Assembly (NCBI GenBank): GCA_023379935.1
Contig: JAMCPD010000018.1
Span: forward strand, 4,567 to 68,566
DNA from: Actinomycetota bacterium
GTDB lineage: Bacteria; Actinomycetota; Acidimicrobiia; Acidimicrobiales; JAMCPD01
Length of the DNA: 64,000 nt
Direction: 5' to 3'
Shown here: positions 37,992 to 50,047 of the stretch, in pieces
Position numbering within the stretch: position 1 is the first letter of the stretch
Layout of the letters: each line of letters begins with the position of its first letter
Position numbers and translations under genes: made by a program
Notes under the pieces: generated by a model
Told to the model about the DNA's origin: nothing
The model's database searches: none
Seen by the model: the letters and a program-made list of their open reading frames with translations, nothing else

Positions 37992-39365
37992 GTGCAAAAG
38001 TCACTCAATGCGCTTGGTCCAATGGGGAAAAGTGGTCGACTGCTTCTTGGGGCACGCCTTTTGGTGAGTACTGTCAGAAGCTTAGCCGGAATAGTTGTTC
38101 CAATCTATCTTGCCTTATCGGGATTTTCCGCTCTGGAGCTGGGGGTACTGTTTGTAGTGGTTGGATTGACCTCTGCTCTCTTTTCTATAACGGTCGCTGC
38201 ATTTGTCAATAAACTTGGATGTAAGTTCTTTCTGATACTTTTCCCAATTTTGCTGGCGTTAGCTGCCGGCGGTTTCGCTGTGACTACTTTACCTCCTCTG
38301 TTATTTATTTTTGCCGCCATCGGTACGTTTGGTAGGGGAGCGGGAGCAGGAGCGGGAGCAGTCGGCCCTTATCAACCGGCTGAACAGACATATATAACCC
38401 AACTGGTAGCTCCGACACTTCGTAATCAAGTGTTCGGGCTTTTTGGGTCGGCAAGCGCACTCGGAGGAGTGCTAGGTGGGCTGCTGGCACTATTCTTCCG
38501 TGCCACCCCTCATACGGCTGTATTGAGCTTCTTTAGACCGGGCTTTATTGTAATTGCAACCGTTTCCTTCACAGCGGGATTATTGGCTGTATTTATTGTC
38601 GGGCACAAAGATGCATCACTTATACAAGATATTGGGGATTCTACCGGTCCAACTTCTACCGGTCCAACTTCTACCGGTCCAGCCAATCTTCCAAGTAAAA
38701 CCAGACCGCCGGTGCGGTACAGCTCGGATGGACTTTTTTCTCTCTCTAAGAGCGCCCGCTCTTTAACCTTAAAGCTGTTTTTCACCAATGCCGTAAATGG
38801 GGTGGCCATCGGAATGTTCGCTCCATTCTTATCCTACTGGCTTTACCTGCGTTTTCATGCAAATCCAGCCGAGATAGGTATACTGTTTGTTTTCATCAAC
38901 TTAATTTCGGTTGTATCGACACTATCGGCTGCTAATATAGCAAACCGGTTCGGATTGTTGCGTGCAATAGTGATGACAAGGATTGTGCAGTCTGTTTTGC
39001 TGATTCCATTTGCTTTTTCCCCAAACCTGTTAATTGCAGGACTTATACTTGGGTGTCGTATGTTGGTTCAAAGAATCGGAATGCCGCTTCGCCAGTCATA
39101 TGTAATGGGAGTCCTCAATCCGGATGAACGTGCACGCGTTAGTGCTCTCTCCAACTTGGGATCTCAGTTGATGATGACCCTAAGCCCGCTGTTATCGGGT
39201 GAAATATTGGCGGAGATGGCTCTGAGCTTACCTTTTGGGATAGCCGGAGTTGTCCAGTTGATCAATGCGGTTATGTTCTACATCTTCTTTCATAAAATCT
39301 TGCCGGAAGATGAACGCCAAGAGGTATCAGAGCAAGAAGAACGGTATACTTTAGACTACCCATGA
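37992..39365 (+). CDS. MFS-type transporter
   Basis: About 12 hydrophobic segments in two halves, separated by a central loop that carries the STGPT repeat. Confidence 0.6.
   Translation: MQKSLNALGPMGKSGRLLLGARLLVSTVRSLAGIVVPIYLALSGFSALELGVLFVVVGLTSALFSITVAAFVNKLGCKFFLILFPILLALAAGGFAVTTLPPLLFIFAAIGTFGRGAGAGAGAVGPYQPAEQTYITQLVAPTLRNQVFGLFGSASALGGVLGGLLALFFRATPHTAVLSFFRPGFIVIATVSFTAGLLAVFIVGHKDASLIQDIGDSTGPTSTGPTSTGPANLPSKTRPPVRYSSDGLFSLSKSARSLTLKLFFTNAVNGVAIGMFAPFLSYWLYLRFHANPAEIGILFVFINLISVVSTLSAANIANRFGLLRAIVMTRIVQSVLLIPFAFSPNLLIAGLILGCRMLVQRIGMPLRQSYVMGVLNPDERARVSALSNLGSQLMMTLSPLLSGEILAEMALSLPFGIAGVVQLINAVMFYIFFHKILPEDERQEVSEQEERYTLDYP
38640..38684 (+). repeat. 15-bp in-frame tandem repeat x3 (STGPT)
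   Basis: tctaccggtccaact x2, plus tctaccggtccagcc. Confidence 0.9.
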
Positions 39366-42307
39366 TAAACTGTTTCAAAAGAGTTTATACCTTTCGTGTC
39401 GGCCTAATCATCTCAGCCTATACCGTTATAGCATTGGCCACTTATGGGATCCCCATAGTTCTCGGTAACCCTATCTTGCGGAACTCCAACTTAATCCAGA
39501 ACTACCCTTTGCGAGCTTTGGTCGGCATCGATCTTGCCCATGGTCATCTTCCACTTTGGAATCCGTACATTTGGAGTGGCACGCCACTGTTGGCGGGGTT
39601 TAATGCCGGAGCAGCTTATCCGCTTACATGGCTGTTTGCGGTGTTGCCCGCCAAAATAGCTTGGGTGGTGAACCAGGCCTCCGGTCAGGTTGTAGCTGCC
39701 GTCGGAATGCTGGTCTATGCGCGTCTTCGCGGGCGTTGTTGGTGGGCGGGGTTCCTTGCCGGGCTGGCATATGGATTCGGCGGATTCATAGTTGCTCAAA
39801 ACGTTCATATCGGCTTGGTGCTCTCAGCGGCATGGTTGCCTTGGTGTATAGTGGCCTTGGACCGATTGGCATATCGGCCGCAAGAGCAGAAAAAGGGTTG
39901 GGCGGAGATTCGCTCGCTATCTCCTTGGGTAGCACTGCTCGCTGCTTCATTCGCGATGATGATTCTCGCTGCTTCACCCGGACCGATACTCGACTCAATA
40001 CCGGTAATTGCTGCGATTATCTGTGTAAGCGCTATACGCGTGCCAAAACGAAGATATCAGATTATCTTTGGTGCTTTTGCTGCACTATGCTTAAGTGCGC
40101 TTGCTTCATCCGTCCAGTGGTTGCCCGGTGCACTATTTCAGGCTTCATCGCAGCGTAAAACTGTAACGTATGCTTATTTTACATCGGGGTCTTTTCCAAA
40201 AGGACTGACTTTTTTGGGTGTAGACCCTGTTCTTGTCGGTAGCGCACATAGTAAGGTAATAGGCTTTCTGGGATCCGGAGGACTGCAGGGAATCCCTGAA
40301 ATATCCTTTTATGTCGGTATTGGCGCGGCTGTGGCGGTATTCGGGTTACTTTCGTATCGCTACCGCCATACGTTACAAGGTAGGGAACGTTGGTTGTGGT
40401 ATGGGATATTGATGGGGGGACTTCTCCTTGCTTTCGGGTCACTTACACCACTTAGCCATTTGGAATACCTGATTCCCTTTTATAACACCCAACGTATGTT
40501 GAACAGGAATTTAATGGAGGTTGACTTGGCCTTGGCTGTCTTGTTGGCGGATTGGACAGACATAGTCCTCGGGCGTTGTAGGGATGGGCTGCAATCGGGC
40601 GTTGTTGGGACAACTTATCCCACTCCATCCTCCGACAAAAAAACCAAGCAACATAAATGGGTTGATTTTTTCCATCAAAATGACCACTTACTGCTTCCAG
40701 CGCTGCCAATCATAATCGTAGTCATACTCCTCTTACTAATTGTATTTATAGGATCGGATGTTATAGGAACATTGGGAGGAGGACATTCACCGGTAAACAG
40801 TTCGGATATTTGGCGTATTGTGTTGGCATCTCTAATTCCTTTTGCTGTTGGGGTTGGCTGGTGGACACTTTACTTTAGGGCGCCACATTGGCGCCGTAGG
40901 CGCTTGGGGATAGTTCTTGTCCTTATGACTATTGTCGATTTGGGTTACTATGGGTTCATGGTAACCCCTTCTCCCATGCCTAACTCGATTACTCAACCTA
41001 AAGGCAGTTTCGTCAGTCAGCTTAAGCACACCTTGCAAGCCGAAACCGCGAAGAACGGTAGCGTTGCGCCACGCATTGTTATCTATGACCCGTTGATACT
41101 TCATTTGCCCAGCCTCAATCGTTTGGGCCAACCCGACCTTACCTTACTTCAGGGTTTACAAACTGCGGGAGGCTATGGCGCTTTGGTTGAGCGGTCATAC
41201 CAGAACGCAACAGATTCTCATTCACAGCTGGACTTTTCCCCATCAGCACTAGCCGGTAGTTTGGCAACAGCGCTGGATATTGGCGTGCTTATAACATTAC
41301 CGCAGTACTTCTTGCATCGCATTACTGTCCAAAGCGGTAGCACTAGTAATTCCAGTAATTCCAGTAATTCCAGCTACCTTACACCTCCACCTCCTACACA
41401 AACTACCTTATCACAAAAAGCCTCACATACGTGGTTTTTCGGGAGCAACCTGACTTTACGTAAAGTCGTGTTTCCACTCCTCTCCTTTAGGGCACACTCT
41501 TTACGTACTGGAACAAACCGCAGTTTGCCCAAGTTCAACGTCGGACTGTTATCCGCTGATTCCGCTTCAATCGCTTGGTTACCATCATCTGCATACTCCG
41601 TTCAAACAAAAAATGAATCTGAAATCGTACACTTCTTCCACCCGGTCTCTGCCGCCGGAATTGCAGTTCGCCTGATGTCCAACACCACCCATGAGGCAAT
41701 AAAGGTAGGTTATCTTAGTATTTATACAACGATACAAGGTTCAAAAGCCCAAGCCGTATATAGGTTGGACGGCTCACTCATTGATTCTGTTACCTCTCCC
41801 CACTGGTACTTTGCCGGTGAGATTGGGGCATTTTCCCTATTCCGTAACTCCTATCTTCAAGCTCCTGTGCATATTGTCAACAAGCTCAACGGTCAACCGG
41901 TTCAAAAAAGCTCATCACGGGTGATTGAACAGATGCCATGGGGAACGACTGCGGTGGAGGTCAATACACCCAAACCCGCCTTACTTGTTCGATCCGCCAC
42001 TACATCAGCAGGATGGACGGCAGCGTTGTATCACATACCACCCAACACCGACCGGCAGTTGCCGTCGAAGCCATTATCCTATACCGCAGAGGTTCACAGC
42101 TTCGGCCTCCTCCAAGCGGTTTCACTGCCGAAAGGGCACTTCATTGTGGTCTTTCGCTTCTTCCCGCAGGTTGTAAAGGTAACTTTGTTTATTTCAGTAC
42201 TCGGTTGGTTCTTATTGGCACTCCTTGTGGGTTGGCAAACCTGTTGGATTTTGATGCAACGTAGCCAGTCTTGGTCACTCTATCGGAGTACTAAGAAACC
42301 CTCCTGA
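39362..42307 (+). CDS. YfhO-like large polytopic membrane protein (putative GT-C-type glycosyltransferase)
   Basis: The N-terminal DLAHGHLPLWNPYIWSGTPLLAGFNAGAAYP resembles the YfhO signature. There are many TM segments and a large C-terminal extracytoplasmic part. Confidence 0.5.
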   Translation: MINCFKRVYTFRVGLIISAYTVIALATYGIPIVLGNPILRNSNLIQNYPLRALVGIDLAHGHLPLWNPYIWSGTPLLAGFNAGAAYPLTWLFAVLPAKIAWVVNQASGQVVAAVGMLVYARLRGRCWWAGFLAGLAYGFGGFIVAQNVHIGLVLSAAWLPWCIVALDRLAYRPQEQKKGWAEIRSLSPWVALLAASFAMMILAASPGPILDSIPVIAAIICVSAIRVPKRRYQIIFGAFAALCLSALASSVQWLPGALFQASSQRKTVTYAYFTSGSFPKGLTFLGVDPVLVGSAHSKVIGFLGSGGLQGIPEISFYVGIGAAVAVFGLLSYRYRHTLQGRERWLWYGILMGGLLLAFGSLTPLSHLEYLIPFYNTQRMLNRNLMEVDLALAVLLADWTDIVLGRCRDGLQSGVVGTTYPTPSSDKKTKQHKWVDFFHQNDHLLLPALPIIIVVILLLLIVFIGSDVIGTLGGGHSPVNSSDIWRIVLASLIPFAVGVGWWTLYFRAPHWRRRRLGIVLVLMTIVDLGYYGFMVTPSPMPNSITQPKGSFVSQLKHTLQAETAKNGSVAPRIVIYDPLILHLPSLNRLGQPDLTLLQGLQTAGGYGALVERSYQNATDSHSQLDFSPSALAGSLATALDIGVLITLPQYFLHRITVQSGSTSNSSNSSNSSYLTPPPPTQTTLSQKASHTWFFGSNLTLRKVVFPLLSFRAHSLRTGTNRSLPKFNVGLLSADSASIAWLPSSAYSVQTKNESEIVHFFHPVSAAGIAVRLMSNTTHEAIKVGYLSIYTTIQGSKAQAVYRLDGSLIDSVTSPHWYFAGEIGAFSLFRNSYLQAPVHIVNKLNGQPVQKSSSRVIEQMPWGTTAVEVNTPKPALLVRSATTSAGWTAALYHIPPNTDRQLPSKPLSYTAEVHSFGLLQAVSLPKGHFIVVFRFFPQVVKVTLFISVLGWFLLALLVGWQTCWILMQRSQSWSLYRSTKKPS
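41345..41371 (+). repeat. 9-bp in-frame tandem repeat x3 (SNS)
   Basis: agtaattcc x3. Confidence 0.9.
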
Positions 42308-44169
42308 TGCAAAAAACCCGCATACAACCACAAAAGGATGATCGGCGGACCTTAGAGTTCACTGTCGCTGTGGTAGTTTATTTTTGTTTCTCCCTCTTAG
42401 CGTATCTTCCGGCATGGATCGGCGGTCCGACAAAAACAATGACCTGTGGATGTGAAGACCCCGCGCAAGCGGTTTGGTTTTTGACCTGGTTTCCTTTTGC
42501 CCTCTTGCACGGCCATAATCCTTTAATGACAACCTGGATAGAGCATCCCTTAGGAGCTAACCTAATGGATAATACGGCCATCCAACTTCCCGCCTTGTTG
42601 GATATGCCTGTCACGCTTTTGATAGGACCGATCCTAAGCTGGAATATAACGGTATTGGCTGCATTCTTCTCCTCTGCTCTTGTTGCATTTCGGGTATTTC
42701 GCCAGTTTGTCACCTGGTGGCCGGCGGCGCTTTTTGGCGGATGGTTGTATGCATTCGGACCTTACATGGCGGGTCAGGGATACTTGCATCTCAACCTGTT
42801 TTTGGTGCCCTTCCCCCCGCTTATACTACTGCTGTGTTATAAGATAATAGTACAACAAAACCACAATCCGTTTCGTTGGGGCATATTATTAGGTGTTGCT
42901 ACTCTTCTTCAGCTGTTCATCTCTTCTGAAATTTTGGTAACAACCGCACTGATGGCGGTTATCGGCGTACTGGTACTTGTGATATCTGCCGGTATATCTG
43001 CTATATCTACATGGAAGGATACCTTAATTGAACTAAAATCCCGTATTATCTGGGCTTTCAAGGCCATAATGGTTTCATTGGGGGTATTTGTTATCGGAGC
43101 GGGTTATCCCCTCTGGGTGACGCTAAGGGGGACAAGACATATATCCGGGGCAGAAACCGTTCACCCGAGCTATCTCAGTGCCAACCTGCTTGGATTGATA
43201 ATCCCAACCAGCAACCAGTTGGTAGCCCCTATGTTCGCGCGCCATATTGCCAACGGTTTTGTGGGAGCGCCGGACTTTATCGCCGAGAACGGTACATATC
43301 TAGGTGTACCGTTGCTGATAATACTTGGTATTATCATCTGGAAGAACAGAAGAGCCGTCATGGTGCAAACTTTGGCAGCTGTTATGATTATAGCCGTTAT
43401 CTTATCGCTGGGCGACTATCTAAAGATAGGCTCATTACAACTTACATGGTTCAAGTTGCCTTATTTGTGGCTCCACCATCTGCCAGTCTTGGAAAACATC
43501 ATTCCGGTACGGTTTGCATTATATGCGGCGTTATGTGCGGGACTGTTGCTCGCGATTGGAATGGACAAAATACATGAAGGAATGCCTCTTTTCCCTAAAC
43601 ATTACAGATCGGCCGCATCTTCACCCAGCGAACATCACAGTAAAAATCGGCATTTTGCTTGGACTATTGGTATCATCGCACTCCTGCCACTGTGGCCTGC
43701 ATGGCCTTATCATATGCACAATGTTGACATTCCCGCTTACTTTACTTCCGCCTATGTCAAGCAAATTCCGCCCGGCAGTACTGCGCTTATTTATCCGTTT
43801 CCTCGCGTTACCCACGCTGAAGGCATGTTATGGCAGGCGGTCACCGATATGCGCTTTCGTATAGCCGGCGGATTTATACTCACTCCGGATAAAGTGGGTA
43901 ACGGTACTGAATTTGGATCAAACAGTTTTACTGAAGGGTTGCTCAGAAGCTGTTTTTGGGGACATCCTCATTTCAAGTTTACACCGCTACTCGACACAAG
44001 AGTGCGAAACCAGCTGCGATTTTGGGGTGTAAGCACAGTTATAATAGCCAACAGGGGAAAGGACCCCGCCGCTTGTGTTGAACTGTTCAGTCATGTATTT
44101 AGCTCGCGCCCCTTACATCAAGGCGGAGTGTGGATATTCTATAAGATTAATACGAAAGTGAGCGGCTAA
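42307..44169 (+). CDS. Large polytopic membrane protein, function unknown (possibly GT-C-like)
   Basis: 620 aa with many TM segments. TGATG overlap with the preceding gene. Confidence 0.4.
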   Translation: MQKTRIQPQKDDRRTLEFTVAVVVYFCFSLLAYLPAWIGGPTKTMTCGCEDPAQAVWFLTWFPFALLHGHNPLMTTWIEHPLGANLMDNTAIQLPALLDMPVTLLIGPILSWNITVLAAFFSSALVAFRVFRQFVTWWPAALFGGWLYAFGPYMAGQGYLHLNLFLVPFPPLILLLCYKIIVQQNHNPFRWGILLGVATLLQLFISSEILVTTALMAVIGVLVLVISAGISAISTWKDTLIELKSRIIWAFKAIMVSLGVFVIGAGYPLWVTLRGTRHISGAETVHPSYLSANLLGLIIPTSNQLVAPMFARHIANGFVGAPDFIAENGTYLGVPLLIILGIIIWKNRRAVMVQTLAAVMIIAVILSLGDYLKIGSLQLTWFKLPYLWLHHLPVLENIIPVRFALYAALCAGLLLAIGMDKIHEGMPLFPKHYRSAASSPSEHHSKNRHFAWTIGIIALLPLWPAWPYHMHNVDIPAYFTSAYVKQIPPGSTALIYPFPRVTHAEGMLWQAVTDMRFRIAGGFILTPDKVGNGTEFGSNSFTEGLLRSCFWGHPHFKFTPLLDTRVRNQLRFWGVSTVIIANRGKDPAACVELFSHVFSSRPLHQGGVWIFYKINTKVSG

Positions 44170-44243: not shown

Positions 44244-46018
<1,775 letters not shown>

Positions 46019-46211: not shown

Positions 46212-46892
46212 CTATTTTTTGGCCGGTTCGTAATAGGGGTTGGTTCCGTTTGCATGATCGGTTACATCTATTACAGCTTTAATGCGGGGAACCGCCTCTT
46301 TTAATGCAACCTCTATGCCCTGAGAGAGGGTGACCCTTGCTAAGCCACATCCTTGACATCCACCGCCTAAGCGTAAGTAAACGATATCATTTTCAACAGC
46401 CACCAACTGTGCATATCCACCATGTGCGGCTATAGCCGGGTTTATCTCATCGTCCAGTACTTTAGCTACGGTGATCCCAAATTCAGTGTCCGCCCCTTGC
46501 CCTTCTGAAACCTGATCACCTAAGGGAGAAGCGGGTGATGCCGACAAACCGGATGAGGGGGTGTTCGGATTCAATATAACCAGGCCCCCGTCTGTCCCGT
46601 CTTGGCCATCATTTGAAAAGTCCAAGGTGGCCCCTCGCAGCTTTTCTCTGCTTGGTGCCGGCAGTACTATGGGAAGCTCACCCACAAATTGAACGGCATC
46701 GTTTCCGGTTGCATCTTTTATACTTTGGAAATACAGATTGTAAGCATAGGCACCATTTGAGACACCGTTTATATCGATCCACAGCGCGAGATCATCCGCA
46801 TCAGGCTCTGTTGACCGAGCTGTCATTATGACATCTGCCGCATTTTCGGTAACTGTAAGGTACTGCTCTTCGTTGGTGATTTGTGTAGACAT
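46212..46892 (-). CDS. NfuA-like Fe-S cluster carrier (degenerate A-type domain plus Nfu domain)
   Basis: C-terminal PAIAAHGGYAQLVAVENDIVYLRLGGGCQGCG (CxxC Nfu motif). Confidence 0.75.
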   Translation of the reverse strand: MSTQITNEEQYLTVTENAADVIMTARSTEPDADDLALWIDINGVSNGAYAYNLYFQSIKDATGNDAVQFVGELPIVLPAPSREKLRGATLDFSNDGQDGTDGGLVILNPNTPSSGLSASPASPLGDQVSEGQGADTEFGITVAKVLDDEINPAIAAHGGYAQLVAVENDIVYLRLGGGCQGCGLARVTLSQGIEVALKEAVPRIKAVIDVTDHANGTNPYYEPAKK

Positions 46893-46920
46893 TCTATACC
46901 TCGCTTATAATCTTGTTTAA

Positions 46921-48252
46921 ATGGCTTTAACATCTAAACTACTACAATATGCGAGTGAACGCACCAACATAGCCATAATTTTACCGTCTGATACCTATAA
47001 AGCTGCCGGCTTTATGGAAGCAACAGCCAAAATGGGGCTTGGTGCTTTGATAATAACAAACAACCCAACCGGCGGTGATCCACATCCAATCAGCCGTATG
47101 GCAGCTGACAAGCTGATTGCGGTTGATTTAACAGATACCGAAAATGCCGCAATTGAAGTGGTGGACTTCATAAACAACAGTCCAGTGAAAGACAGCCTTA
47201 AAGCTATAATTGCCGCAGACGAACAAGGGGTCATGCTGGCATCTTTGATTGGCTTTACCCTTGGCCAGCCCGCTCTTAGGACAAATCCTCCTTCAGCCGT
47301 TGCGCTAAGCAAAAACAAGCTGGCCATGCGTAAAGCTCTCCGGGATGCCAACGTAACCCAACCTGATTGGAGGAGAGCTTACACGCATGACGATATCATC
47401 AAAGCGGCAAATGAAATCGGATTTCCAGTAGTTATCAAACCTATAGGACTGTCAGGGAGTAAGGGAGTCATACGCGCCGACAACAACGAAGAGGCCGCCA
47501 ATGCCTGCGTGCGTATATACAAGATGTTGAATACAAAATCATCGTCAACAGAACCGTTACTGGTTGAAAAGTTTATTTCGGGTACGGAGGTTGCGCTGGA
47601 AGGGATTTTGAACAACGGTCAACTTACGGTGCTTGCCATTTTTGACAAACCTGATCCGTTGAACGGGCCTTGGTTTGAAGAGACCTTATACGTAACACCG
47701 TCGCGCCTTGAAACTCAAGTTATAGACTGTGTTGTCGAGGTAACCAAAAAGGCGGTTTCAGCTTTTGGATTAACCGACGGCCCTCTACATGCGGAGTTGA
47801 GAGTTGATGCCGACGGTTCAACCGGACCTCGTCCCACCTGCTATTTTATAGAGGCGGCGACTCGCAGTATAGGAGGGCTATGTTCAAAATGCCTGGCATT
47901 CGTCCAAGATAAGAATTCATCAGATCAACTTAGCCTTGAAGAGGTTATAATACGCCAGGCGTTGGGTCTTTCAATTGATAAATTAACCCTAAAATGGCAT
48001 GCCTCGGGAGTTTTAATGATACCAATACCCAAAGCGGGTATCTTCAAAGGAGTTGAAAACAAACTGGGAGCTCTTAAAACAGATAACATAGTCGGCATAG
48101 ATATATCGGTGCCACCGGGACATCTGTTACAACCACTGCCCGAAGGAGATAGATATCTTGGATTTATATTTGCAAAAGCCGAAACTCCCACCCAAGTGGA
48201 GAACTCTTTGAGGTCGGCATTGGCGAAGTTGGAGGTTAGAATAGAAACATGA
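46921..48252 (+). CDS. ATP-grasp domain protein, substrate unknown
   Basis: NKLAMRKAL, FPVVIKPIGLSGSKGV, LLVEKFISGTEVALEG and HAELRV...YFIEAATRSIGG. Confidence 0.75.
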   Translation: MALTSKLLQYASERTNIAIILPSDTYKAAGFMEATAKMGLGALIITNNPTGGDPHPISRMAADKLIAVDLTDTENAAIEVVDFINNSPVKDSLKAIIAADEQGVMLASLIGFTLGQPALRTNPPSAVALSKNKLAMRKALRDANVTQPDWRRAYTHDDIIKAANEIGFPVVIKPIGLSGSKGVIRADNNEEAANACVRIYKMLNTKSSSTEPLLVEKFISGTEVALEGILNNGQLTVLAIFDKPDPLNGPWFEETLYVTPSRLETQVIDCVVEVTKKAVSAFGLTDGPLHAELRVDADGSTGPRPTCYFIEAATRSIGGLCSKCLAFVQDKNSSDQLSLEEVIIRQALGLSIDKLTLKWHASGVLMIPIPKAGIFKGVENKLGALKTDNIVGIDISVPPGHLLQPLPEGDRYLGFIFAKAETPTQVENSLRSALAKLEVRIET

Positions 48253-49748
48253 AAGTTCTACTTGTATCTACCTATGAGTTGGGGCACCAACCATTCCATC
48301 TGGCATCTTCAGCGCAAGTGCTTCTTGAAGGCGGCCATCAGGTAATATGCCACGACCTGGCAGTTCGGGAGTGGGAACCCGACCTGATAGAACAGGTGGA
48401 TTTGGTTGCCATAGCCGTGCCTATGCATACGGCAATGAGACTCGGGGTCGAGTTGGCCAAACAGATAAACAGACAAAAACCCCTTTTACCGTTATGCCTC
48501 TACGGTCTTTATGCCCATATAGCTGTCGACGATGATATATGGGTTGAACATTGTATAGTCGGTGAGTATGAACAACCGTTATTGGCCTGGGTAAACAGTC
48601 ACGCTTATCCCAACAAGCCTACCGAGGTTGTCCATCCTCTTAGGACAACCAAACTTGTAGTAAACATTGAGCGCCATCCCCACCCAATTCCGGCGCGGAG
48701 TCTCTTGAACCCTATACAAGGCTATGCAAGGCTACTGTCAAATCAACGAACACCACCAAATCAACAGATACCGGCGTATCTTCCCACCCAAACCTGCCCG
48801 GGCGACACCAACGGTTCCTTGGCGGGCTATACAGAGGCATCGAGGGGATGTTCTCACAAGTGCAGACACTGTCCGGTGCCGGTGGTTTACAACGGCCGTG
48901 TGCGAAGTATAGAAACGGATGTGGTTATGGCCGATATTGATAACCAAGTTCAAATGGGAGCCACCCATATAACCTTTGGTGATCCAGACTTTTTAAACCT
49001 ACCCCACCATGCTGTAACGGTGGTAGAAGAGTTAGCCCGATCATTTCCCCGACTCAGCTTCGACATAACGGCAAAAGTTTCTCACATCATCAAGTATGAA
49101 CATTTATGGCCAAAAATGTCAGACGCGGGATGCTTGTTCGTAGTGTCAGCCTTTGAATCACTGAACGATATGATCTTGGAAAAGTTAGACAAAGGGCATA
49201 CCGCCAAAGATGAAATCACAGCTGTGGAGATACTGCGGCGAAGTCAAATAGAACCGAGACCATCTTTTTTGCCCTTTACTCCTTGGAGCACAGTTGATGA
49301 CATAGCTGACATAGTGGACTTTATAGGTGAGTGCGATTTAGTGGGAAATGTCGATCCCGTCCAATATACAATCTGGCTTTTACTGCCACCGGGCTCGTTA
49401 CTGTTGGATAAACTAACGGAAGAAATGCCGCAATGCCTGGGCTCATATTCCCGAGAAAAACTAACCACTGAATGGAAACCCAAGGACACACGCCTCTATG
49501 GATTGCATAAGCAGCTTGGAAAGCTGGTAACTGAGTACGCCTCAAATCCGACTCCTTTGGCAAAAGTATATGAACAGATTAAATCCGTTGTTTATGATGA
49601 GACAACCAGAAAATATCCGCCGATGTTTACCAACCCATTACAACAAGTGTCGTTGCGTTCGAACATTCCGGTTGATGACCGCCCGCGACTTAGCGAACCA
49701 TGGTTCTGTTGCGCAGAACCCACACAGTATCAACTAGCCATGATTTGA
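48249..49748 (+). CDS. B12-binding-like / radical SAM enzyme with a C-terminal CCAEP motif
   Basis: CSHKCRHC (CxxxCxxC) at 48849-48872. N-terminal Rossmann-like MKVLLVSTYELGH...VDLVAIAV. WFCCAEPT at 49707-49721, 9 codons before the stop. ATGA overlap with the ATP-grasp gene. Confidence 0.8.
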   Translation: MKVLLVSTYELGHQPFHLASSAQVLLEGGHQVICHDLAVREWEPDLIEQVDLVAIAVPMHTAMRLGVELAKQINRQKPLLPLCLYGLYAHIAVDDDIWVEHCIVGEYEQPLLAWVNSHAYPNKPTEVVHPLRTTKLVVNIERHPHPIPARSLLNPIQGYARLLSNQRTPPNQQIPAYLPTQTCPGDTNGSLAGYTEASRGCSHKCRHCPVPVVYNGRVRSIETDVVMADIDNQVQMGATHITFGDPDFLNLPHHAVTVVEELARSFPRLSFDITAKVSHIIKYEHLWPKMSDAGCLFVVSAFESLNDMILEKLDKGHTAKDEITAVEILRRSQIEPRPSFLPFTPWSTVDDIADIVDFIGECDLVGNVDPVQYTIWLLLPPGSLLLDKLTEEMPQCLGSYSREKLTTEWKPKDTRLYGLHKQLGKLVTEYASNPTPLAKVYEQIKSVVYDETTRKYPPMFTNPLQQVSLRSNIPVDDRPRLSEPWFCCAEPTQYQLAMI

Positions 49749-49780
49749 CCAATGCCTGCCCAGTTGTAGCCAAAACTCCC

Positions 49781-49831
49781 AACCGCACCGGACTTTTACA
49801 ACCGCACCGGGCTTTTACAACCGCACCGGGC
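49781..49831. repeat. 19-bp tandem repeat x2.7 (aaccgcaccggRcttttac)
   Basis: Read directly. It lies between the radical SAM stop (49748) and the stop of the minus-strand small gene (49847). Confidence 0.9.
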
Positions 49832-49846
49832 TAGGGCGTTCCTGGA

Positions 49847-50047
49847 TCAGGGAAGATCCGTATGGCTATCTGCTTGCGGTAAGCTTTCATCCGCCAAACA
49901 CCATGACGCATGTGTTGCCCCTGATACCGCATTGCACTCAGGACAACGCTTAGCAGATTTTGGTGTAAAAAGCTGAGCTGGCGACAACTGTATGCTGCGC
50001 TTTAAGCTTCGTGCCTCTTCGAATCGCCTATGTCGTCCTTTTTTCAA
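49847..50047 (-). CDS. Small basic protein with a Zn-ribbon-like CxxC...HxxWC
   Basis: 66 aa, with KRCPECNAVSGATHASWC. TTG start preceded by GGAG at a 5-nt spacing. Confidence 0.45.
   Translation of the reverse strand: MKKGRHRRFEEARSLKRSIQLSPAQLFTPKSAKRCPECNAVSGATHASWCLADESLPQADSHTDLP

Follow-up and report, generated by a model that had tools for sequence, protein, structure and literature searches.

ArsL catalyzes the first step of arsinothricin biosynthesis, in which S-adenosylmethionine (SAM) is converted to methylthioadenosine and a 3-amino-3-carboxypropyl (ACP) species, and the ACP group is moved onto arsenite bound by a required C-terminal CCxxC tail (10.1101/2024.02.01.577332; 10.64898/2026.04.29.721666). 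The enzyme was reconstituted with SAM, dithionite, and arsenite, with cobalamin unmentioned (10.1101/2024.02.01.577332). Here, we describe a three-gene module from an Acidimicrobiales bacterium (phylum Actinomycetota; assembly GCA_023379935.1) that encodes a radical SAM protein of the CUAEP/CCAEP-tail family, a putative L-amino-acid ligase of the ATP-grasp superfamily, and an Nfu-type iron-sulfur (Fe-S) carrier protein. The module lies in a 64,000-nucleotide stretch (contig JAMCPD010000018.1, positions 4,567 to 68,566), hereafter the window, to whose first letter all coordinates refer unless another locus is named. To our knowledge, ArsL is so far the only radical SAM enzyme bearing a canonical motif that has been shown to perform "wrong-way" SAM cleavage and to form a carbon-metalloid bond. 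The CUAEP family is already catalogued, without a function; a literature search found no paper on what it does, and the one paper returned that mentions the family describes it as uncharacterized, in line with a preliminary description of this locus that had placed the radical SAM protein in the family and noted no assigned function. Neither the trio itself, the ligase assignment, a quantification of selenocysteine (Sec) and selenocysteine insertion sequence (SECIS) usage, nor the partner sets of a sister branch (MerB, aminotransferase, methyltransferase) were found in the literature searched, and no characterized pathway matches the pair of ATP-grasp and radical SAM genes. The three genes are conserved as a trio across hundreds of soil and water bacteria. 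We assign a probability of roughly 0.4 to the reading that, in this module, a soft heteroatom held by the tail of the radical SAM protein undergoes ArsL-type chemistry to give a new amino acid, which the ligase builds into a dipeptide, with the Nfu-type protein servicing the cluster.

In the window, the Nfu-type gene (46212..46892, minus strand, 226 amino acids) is divergent from the ATP-grasp gene (46921..48252, plus strand, 443 amino acids) across a 28-bp spacer (46893..46920), and the stop codon of the latter overlaps the start of the radical SAM gene (48249..49748, plus strand, 499 amino acids) by 4 nt in the sequence ATGA (48249..48252), with GGAGG 13 nt upstream in front of the overlap. 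The positions of the three ORFs, the spacer, and the overlap are exactly as first described, and the other features listed in that description are also present, with one distance in the tail slightly off. A scan of one genome per species returned at least 574 species loci of the CUAEP/CCAEP family, falling into ~290 clusters at 50% identity, and 80 of these loci were kept for analysis. The gene content of high-GC loci was read by tblastn and a caller guided by GC content at third codon positions, naive open reading frame (ORF) calling being unsuitable there because antisense ORFs displaced real genes. Among the 66 species loci at which an upstream ATP-grasp gene could be assessed, it was directly upstream of and codirectional with the radical SAM gene in 52 and further off, within ~6 kb, in 5, giving 57 of 66 within the locus and 9 with none. 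The Nfu-type gene was divergent beside the ATP-grasp gene in 50 of the 65 loci where it was assessable. Spacing between the genes is operonic: the reading frames overlap in 13 of 78 codirectional ATP-grasp/radical SAM pairs, by 4 nt in 10 cases, and lie 0 to 30 nt apart in another 32, and 33 pairs are separated by more than 30 nt, mostly by no more than 62 nt. Several loci in some lineages have an alternative codirectional order of radical SAM, short Nfu, and ATP-grasp genes, and a single genome encodes an ATP-grasp/radical SAM fusion protein with NifU beside it. The pairing that had been described as a two-gene cassette therefore stands, but the unit comprises three genes, since Nfu is as conserved as the ATP-grasp. 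None of the outcomes named in the preliminary description as refuting it (lack of conserved linkage, a nonconserved tail motif, or a match to a characterized pathway) was observed.

The association of Nfu with the ATP-grasp extends beyond the radical SAM gene. When metagenome contigs were searched with the ATP-grasp as bait, 30 of the 49 loci assessable on both sides had a radical SAM gene, 12 had Nfu only, and 7 had neither. In the ATP-grasp tree, the window protein falls within a large clade almost uniformly linked to both partners, and members without a radical SAM gene form deeper clades. The proposal that Nfu is a dedicated Fe-S donor to the radical SAM protein thus captures a conserved linkage but is not the whole story, because Nfu and the ATP-grasp are also found together where no radical SAM gene accompanies them. 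It could be argued that Nfu and ATP-grasp are the primary unit, devoted to Fe-S or thiol handling, in which the ligase makes a thiol peptide that ligates or protects clusters, or modifies the carrier, and in which the radical SAM protein would be an accessory, or a client that they often serve. The Nfu-only metagenome loci, the whole ATP-grasp clades without a radical SAM gene, one clade of radical SAM genes without either partner nearby, and the housekeeping genes that surround the module would all fit such a role. We nevertheless consider it improbable: nearly all members of the clade that contains the window ATP-grasp are linked to the radical SAM gene, loci that lack this gene may carry it elsewhere in the genome, and a ligase from Catenulispora rubra (297 bits on the module ATP-grasp profile) shares an operon with a radical SAM gene without Nfu. 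We also know of no precedent for an L-amino-acid ligase in Fe-S biogenesis, which counts against this alternative.

The window radical SAM protein matched the family model NF040546 (rSAM_CUAEP) with an E value of 5e-148 and 493.6 bits, 6.4 bits under the curated cut-off of 500, in an alignment of residues 3 to 497 with positions 1 to 467 of the 468-position model. The likely reason for the shortfall is a private insert of about 21 residues before the cluster motif (roughly residues 167-186, ..PPNQQIPAYLPTQTCPGDTNG.., at 48747..48806 on the plus strand), which is missing from all 26 aligned homologues and is predicted to be disordered in the AlphaFold model, where residues 167-186 have a predicted local distance difference test score (pLDDT) below 50. 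The 80-odd family-invariant columns of the 27-sequence alignment are all kept. The protein is therefore treated as a slightly divergent true member of the family, to judge from its sequence; its nearest database relatives share only 46 to 48% identity. The match to NF040546, like the Pfam matches of the two partner proteins given below, is much too strong to be due to chance. It consists of an N-terminal Rossmann domain of the B12-binding-like type, a radical SAM core matched by PF04055, a helical segment, and the tail. The core carries the predicted [4Fe-4S]/SAM motif CxxxCxxC as CSHKCRHC (residues 201-208, C201, C205, and C208; 48849..48872, plus strand), as noted in the preliminary description, whose suggestion of a B12-binding-like N-terminal domain likewise agrees with weak PF02310 matches in homologues and with the AlphaFold model. 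The family divides into two subfamilies: the WFCCAEP type, to which the window protein belongs and whose partners are Nfu and the ligase, and a WYCCAEP type, whose members score 620 to 650 bits on NF040546.

A search of solved structures found no close relative of the radical SAM protein. The AlphaFold2 model (pLDDT 86.7) gave AprD4, TsrM, and OxsB as top structural matches, with further matches to MgmA, TokK, and CysS. The match to AprD4 (6FD2) had a template modeling score of 0.63 to 0.69. AprD4 and the cobalamin-dependent (class B) enzymes have their overall fold in common with the window protein, yet sequence similarity to them is marginal, they lack the tail, and their chemistry differs. 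The Rossmann domain, the weak PF02310 matches, and the structural likeness to TsrM, OxsB, MgmA, TokK, and CysS could be taken to indicate a class B radical SAM methyltransferase. We attach very little weight to this possibility, as all B12 radical SAM models score 44 bits or less on the window protein, the best fold match is AprD4, ArsL was reconstituted without mention of cobalamin, and operons of the sister branch carry separate class I methyltransferases for any methylation required. AprD4 is not known to use cobalamin. The resemblance to B12 enzymes is thus one of fold only, and cobalamin use is not indicated.

The window radical SAM protein ends in ..RPRLSEPWFCCAEPTQYQLAMI, and its conserved C-terminal arm, RPRLSEPWFCCAEPT (residues 478-492; 49680..49724, plus strand), is modeled as ordered, with a pLDDT of 76 to 90. 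Within the arm, P479, L481, E483, and WFCCAEP are invariant in the alignment, and the tail motif is present in 112 of the 120 best homologues, at least 3 of the remaining 8 being cut at a Sec codon; the motif is essentially invariant. The preliminary description had placed WFCCAEPT nine residues from the C terminus; the motif occupies residues 485-492 and is followed by seven residues, QYQLAMI, which puts the second cysteine 11 residues from the end. Cys487 and Cys488 are encoded by TGT TGC (49707-49712), the Cys-Cys form, as previously read. In 30 of 78 species loci (~40%), the codon for the second cysteine is replaced by TGA, read as Sec, after which the conserved peptide continues (AEPTEGQFGPL..). 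The check for SECIS elements proposed in the preliminary description gave a clear result, with hairpins in Sec forms and none in Cys forms: a perfect stem of 7 bp occurs, +16 to +34 relative to the UGA, in 34 of 47 distinct Sec-form sequences compared to 0 of 55 Cys forms, several of its pairs show compensatory changes, and the loop AGUUN is found in 44 of the 47. With its in-frame UGA codon, SECIS element, and continued peptide, the family, as distinct from the window copy, which is a Cys form with no SECIS hairpin, is a bacterial selenoprotein family. At least 14 switches between Cys and Sec are needed on the radical SAM tree. Together, Sec usage, SECIS elements, and repeated switching imply that the position of the second cysteine is functionally critical, with sulfur and selenium interchangeable there, and sequence conservation argues for the functional importance of the tail as a whole.

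One Sec form has been truncated in annotation. On the megaplasmid of Thermomicrobium roseum DSM 5159 (NC_011961.1, L163:7935-9371), the annotated protein WP_012643191.1 stops at ..ESWFC, and reading through the TGA restores AEPLEDPSGPV..; the gene is flanked by genes for a pyridoxal phosphate-dependent aminotransferase, a major facilitator superfamily (MFS) transporter, and a GNAT-ABC fusion. The CU motif has been discussed previously (bioRxiv 10.1101/2022.07.06.499078). The window tail has in common with several better-known proteins a vicinal chalcogen pair near the C terminus. Vicinal Cys-Cys or Cys-Sec arms of this kind occur in MerA, HgcB, ArsD, and thioredoxin reductase, where they fetch a soft metal(loid) or shuttle electrons. 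Unlike those arms, the arm of the window family is part of a radical SAM enzyme, with an invariant AEP after the chalcogen pair.

Judged by sequence, ArsL is the closest characterized relative of the window radical SAM protein, and it provides a mechanistic model that the preliminary description did not have. The ArsL model NF040542 scored 258.2 bits over residues 3-423, covering the whole model except the tail, and the ArsL of a Pseudomonas amygdali ars island shares 30% identity over 416 residues (E value of 2e-62). The two proteins have a common two-domain body (Rossmann-like N-terminal domain plus radical SAM core) and a Cys-rich tail, functional in ArsL, that starts with a vicinal CC aligned to the CC of the window arm. 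Forty-two positions are invariant in both the CUAEP and ArsL families, including S..E.G.QP, the cluster cysteines, and the first vicinal cysteine. They differ in that the CUAEP family carries some 65 more helical residues ahead of its tail, frequently uses Sec, and is partnered by an Nfu-type protein, and in that its tail reads [WY][FY]C[C/U]AEP and offers two chalcogen ligands rather than three. The ArsL sequences (n = 5) end in KRCC[LI]KC, and the window tail lacks the third cysteine and the RCCLKC motif. It could be proposed that the window protein is a plain ArsL orthologue acting on arsenite, given the homology, the ability of a vicinal Cys pair to bind As(III), and the Sec-containing arsenite methyltransferase models in NCBIfam. 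This is highly unlikely: the score of 258 bits is far from the curated cut-off of 450, the third cysteine of the ArsL tail is missing, and no ars gene occurs in any module locus, unlike true ArsL loci, which are embedded in ars islands. By score, tail, and context the window protein is not an ArsL, and yet it plausibly works like one.

The ATP-grasp protein is refined here from a generic ligase to a predicted L-amino-acid ligase (LAL), for which dipeptide formation would be expected. Pfam models ATP-grasp_4 (PF13535) and LAL_C2 (PF18603) matched it with 96.7 and 45.2 bits, respectively, and its homologues show the architecture ATPgrasp_N, ATP-grasp_4, LAL_C2. Comparison with the ligase BL00235 (PDB 3VOT), the best match among solved structures, gave an E value of 1.6e-24 for the single sequence and 2e-54, end to end, for the family profile A2; the same profile matched BacD with an E value of 5e-31. 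BL00235 makes Met-Gly and Met-Met (PMC6920838). The window ligase thus matches BL00235 and BacD/YwfE over their full length and in domain architecture, whereas identity to them is only about 25%, and no known LAL has been described as sharing an operon with genes for a radical SAM enzyme and Nfu. A tblastn search of plasmids with the window ATP-grasp returned only distant relatives (<30% identity).

The third member of the trio has the architecture of NfuA and NFU1, a Cys-free A-type-carrier-like N-terminal domain and an Nfu domain with a CxxC motif (C179 and C182), here joined by a long linker. NifU (PF01106) matched residues 142-208 with 77.6 bits, and TIGR00049 gave a weak match to residues 12-112 (23.7 bits). 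The protein falls far below the cut-offs of the NfuA models, with 83.8 bits on TIGR03341 (cut-off 269.35), from its C-terminal 82 residues only, and 62.6 bits on NF008392 (cut-off 268). The CxxC pair comprises the only conserved cysteines among 96 module-linked Nfu homologues. NfuA and NFU1 provide new clusters to radical SAM enzymes that use theirs up (PMC9585516); unlike them, the window-type Nfu is genetically linked to an ATP-grasp ligase, also at loci where no radical SAM gene lies close by.

In our best-supported model, which extrapolates from ArsL, the radical SAM enzyme is probably noncanonical, and its [4Fe-4S] cluster would break the C-gamma-S bond of SAM, yielding methylthioadenosine and a cluster-bound ACP fragment. 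The ordered Cys-Cys or Cys-Sec arm would hold a soft heteroatom in the active site, for which a metal(loid) is a candidate, as are sulfur and selenium bound much as in a persulfide or trisulfide, and transfer of the ACP group to this atom would generate a methionine-like gamma-substituted 2-aminobutyrate. The ligase, encoded on the same message, could then activate a carboxylate with ATP and join the new amino acid to a second one. The Nfu-type protein may install or repair the [4Fe-4S] cluster and, by analogy with NfuA and lipoyl synthase (PMC9585516), may also donate the atom to be alkylated. In the window branch, which has no arsenic or mercury context and sits in a housekeeping setting, sulfur or selenium delivered via Nfu is at least as plausible as a metalloid. 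The product could serve as an antimetabolite, a thiol or selenol cofactor, or a detoxification product.

Neighborhoods of the WYCCAEP subfamily, in contrast to the housekeeping setting of the window module, look like small-molecule pathways. A Nonomuraea sp. operon (L175:7001-13573) encodes the radical SAM protein, a 2-ketoarginine-methyltransferase-like protein, a class I/II aminotransferase, a HilA-like dioxygenase, the alkylmercury lyase MerB, DUF169, and a second MerB, and a 7.3-Mb genome (L176:5512-15476) carries the same gene set along with genes for a pair of L-amino-acid ligases and an MFS transporter; both look like uncharacterized natural-product pathways for an amino acid or peptide. 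The C. rubra operon comprises genes for the radical SAM protein, DUF169, an ArsR with a CVCDL site, the ligase, a decarboxylase, and an exporter, with MerR and MerB alongside. Fusions of the radical SAM protein to a C-terminal alkylmercury-lyase MerB domain were found in five distinct 90% clusters (P0276 and P0390-P0393; for instance L171:4792-6921, with 623 bits for the radical SAM part), and one contig with a fusion carries a second, stand-alone MerB gene nearby. Recurrent partners in the sister branch are thus of two kinds, enzymes acting on free alpha-amino acids and soft-metal proteins. In Trojan-horse antimetabolite pathways, such as those for the bialaphos/phosphinothricin tripeptide, bacilysin, tabtoxin, and dapdiamide, an unusual amino acid is made, one or two amino acids are added by ATP-dependent ligases, and the product is exported. 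WYCCAEP operons with two ligases and an MFS transporter fit this logic, in contrast to the window module, which has no exporter, resistance gene, or regulator and a core-genome context.

The pairing of an ATP-grasp with a radical SAM enzyme is also common in the biosynthesis of ribosomally synthesized and posttranslationally modified peptides (RiPPs), and the two enzymes could tailor a precursor peptide whose gene lies nearby or at another site. The C. rubra operon would be a case in point, as it ends with an ATP-binding cassette exporter bearing a C39 peptidase and a 47-amino-acid peptide with a double-glycine leader (L174:12152-12295; ..DITGG followed by AYAPTCTNAVCCVNQ), whose Cys-rich core also holds a vicinal CC. 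Several lines of evidence make a RiPP pathway very improbable, however. Within the module and at its flanks, 160 loci showed no small ORF that is conserved, in agreement with the preliminary description, which had seen no precursor gene in the window; the small zinc-ribbon ORF downstream of the window module is limited to Acidimicrobiales and lies about 1.1 kb away there. In addition, the ATP-grasp is of the free-amino-acid ligase type rather than the graspetide type, NCBIfam and Pfam scans detected no RiPP recognition element or SPASM domain, and partner enzymes elsewhere act on free amino acids.

A stronger competitor, though one we still regard as unlikely, is a canonical radical SAM reaction, in which a 5'-deoxyadenosyl radical modifies the amino acid or dipeptide of the ligase (for example by epimerization, dehydration, or formation of a C-S or C-Se bond), the tail acts as a redox or hydrogen-donor arm, and Nfu supplies the cluster. 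Parallels for such an arm exist in the GCUG tail of thioredoxin reductase and the hydrogen-donor cysteine of radical SAM epimerases. The standard CxxxCxxC motif and PF04055 core are as expected for this chemistry; so is the top fold match, AprD4, a 5'-deoxyadenosyl-type diol dehydratase that shares the two-domain layout. A redox role is the classical one for Sec, and a two-residue tail is unlike the three-Cys metalloid site of ArsL. Against this, ArsL, the only characterized close relative, has the same motif and yet performs ACP chemistry, and the window protein scores 258 bits on the ArsL model compared to 44 or less on that of any 5'-deoxyadenosyl enzyme. Moreover, the MerB, MerR, and ArsR genes of the sister branch favor a bound soft atom over a purely redox arm.

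Other observations weigh against our preferred reading, that of ArsL-type ACP transfer to a tail-held heteroatom followed by ligation. Sequence does not reveal at which bond SAM is cleaved and so does not show ACP rather than 5'-deoxyadenosyl chemistry, and the two ligands of the tail fall one short of the ArsL site. The soft-metal signals are confined to the WYCCAEP branch, with none from the WFCCAEP branch of the window. Homologues of ArsM, ArsN, ArsC, Acr3, ArsD, aquaporin, CobW, and MerB were absent from the window and from the 160 to 170 module loci screened for further genes and ars context, as were homologues of ArsQ and CMD-family proteins from the module loci. In 12 of the 49 metagenome loci, the ATP-grasp and Nfu are paired with no radical SAM gene present, and the radical SAM genes without either partner nearby form one clade in the tree. 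The one known case of a fused ATP-grasp/radical SAM protein could have arisen artificially, from an indel at a 4-nt overlap, and the ATP-grasps of ArsL islands, described below, belong only to the same class as the module ligase and are not its specific orthologues. Finally, the window module is surrounded by housekeeping genes (gcv, amtB-glnK, thiO, and aro), and no conserved exporter, regulator, or resistance gene was found in the module loci, a combination that would be unusual for an antimetabolite pathway.

More tentatively, we propose that the CUAEP/CCAEP enzymes constitute a much larger, second branch of ArsL-type ACP transfer that forms bonds other than C-As (C-S, C-Se, or C-metal(loid) being candidates) on an atom held by the Cys-Cys or Cys-Sec arm, with a ligase making a dipeptide and Nfu donating clusters or atoms in the window branch. 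If so, Acidimicrobiia, Thermoleophilia, and Chloroflexota would produce a widespread, partly selenium-dependent metabolite that has previously gone unseen, perhaps an organo-element peptide or else a thiol or selenol of low molecular weight. Should this sister family of ArsL perform related chemistry on another element, noncanonical reactions of radical SAM enzymes would turn from a curiosity into something widespread, and a new class of organo-element amino acids or peptides, possibly antimetabolites or cofactors, would await in understudied but abundant soil and aquatic phyla. The model is testable, with defined partners, an arm that has repeatedly switched between Cys and Sec, and named carriers of the family in T. 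roseum DSM 5159, C. rubra, and Nonomuraea.

A search of the module loci for a fourth conserved gene found none in more than ~15% of loci. The most recurrent extra was DUF169 (PF02596, with several conserved cysteines), present in 25 of about 166 module loci (for example L047:5259-5954, L081:2027-2743, L024, L031, L056, L066, L153, L115, and L125) and also in WYCCAEP operons, and it may be a fourth, optional component. In Solirubrobacterales/Thermoleophilia, a small gene for a DsrE/DsrF-like (sulfur-relay) protein, with a Pfam score of 21.2 bits just below the cut-off, lies directly downstream of the radical SAM gene on the minus strand, ~1.4 to 1.8 kb past the start of that gene (L006, L008, L009, L013, L015, L017, L018, L021, L022, L032, L036, and L060); this could be lineage synteny or a hint of sulfur transfer. 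In Acidimicrobiales, a Cys-rich protein of ~250 to 320 amino acids with no Pfam match is encoded directly downstream of the radical SAM gene at L010:1941-2909 and 11 further loci.

ArsL islands on plasmids of Bacillus, Priestia, Alicyclobacillus, and Klebsiella also carry an ATP-grasp gene of LAL architecture (Alicyclobacillus, L166:436-1668; Priestia, L165:741-1964; Bacillus cereus, L167:1444-2667; Klebsiella, L168:7709-8773), next to genes for ArsM, MFS, ArsN/GNAT, aquaporin, and CobW-like GTPase proteins, which hints at peptide derivatives of arsinothricin; our literature search found no paper linking ArsL and an ATP-grasp. As candidates for specific orthologues of the module ATP-grasp, these island proteins were rejected, with 66 to 135 bits compared to 188 for BL00235. 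Immediately upstream of two of them are genes for small CMD-family (AhpD-like) proteins (L166:118-423 and L167:1139-1432) that end in a vicinal Cys pair (..SSCCK and ..STCCE) and may be metalloid carrier arms. An 853-amino-acid protein, P0384, is a triple fusion of ArsN2 (GNAT), ArsM, and ArsL with an RCCLRC tail, and its sequence appears to place the whole arsinothricin pathway plus self-resistance in a single polypeptide.

The host of the window module appears to have an unusually low GC content of about 47%. In the spacer between the Nfu and ATP-grasp genes, TATAAT (46906-46911) stands 9 nt ahead of the ATP-grasp ATG, and on the minus strand, TAGAAT ends at the Nfu ATG, a layout weakly suggestive of leaderless transcripts in both directions; the evidence is weak because a scan for promoter and terminator consensus gave matches no more frequent than chance. 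Rfam and tRNA scans of the window detected nothing. Just upstream of Nfu (44244-46018, minus strand) are genes for an AmtB-like transporter (479 amino acids) and a GlnB/GlnK-like PII protein (112 amino acids) that overlap by 4 nt; the names rest on translations, and linkage to the module was seen in 0 of 80 species loci. Further upstream, two abutting ORFs (39362-42307, 981 amino acids, and 42307-44169, 620 amino acids, both on the plus strand) come after gcvT/gcvPA/gcvPB and an MFS-like gene. The shorter one encodes a polytopic membrane protein without a Pfam match, and NCBIfam had no match for either. Since none of them is linked to the module in the 80 species loci, amtB-glnK, thiO, the aro genes, and these two large membrane proteins were rejected as components.

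The aroQ, zinc-ribbon, and lipoprotein genes of the window are syntenic with Acidimicrobiales metagenome-assembled genomes, which suggests an Acidimicrobiia-like host, and since the synteny is limited to that order, the aro genes, the zinc-ribbon ORF, and the lipoprotein were set aside as components. The zinc-ribbon ORF (49847..50047, minus strand), noted in the preliminary description as the nearest small gene, had no family match in NCBIfam or Pfam scans and was rejected as a precursor or carrier, as conservation was seen in just 9 of 80 loci, all Acidimicrobiales, where it is not adjacent to the radical SAM gene but 1 to 1.2 kb downstream of it. It looks like a lineage-specific neighbor outside the module. 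Its product is a basic protein of 66 amino acids with a zinc-knuckle (CPEC...H..WC) and a highly conserved N terminus, KKGRHRRFEEARSLKRS. The convergent intergenic region between the stop codons of the radical SAM gene and this ORF contains a 19-bp tandem repeat, CAACCGCACCGGGCTTTTA, in 2.8 copies with 97% matches (49780-49832).

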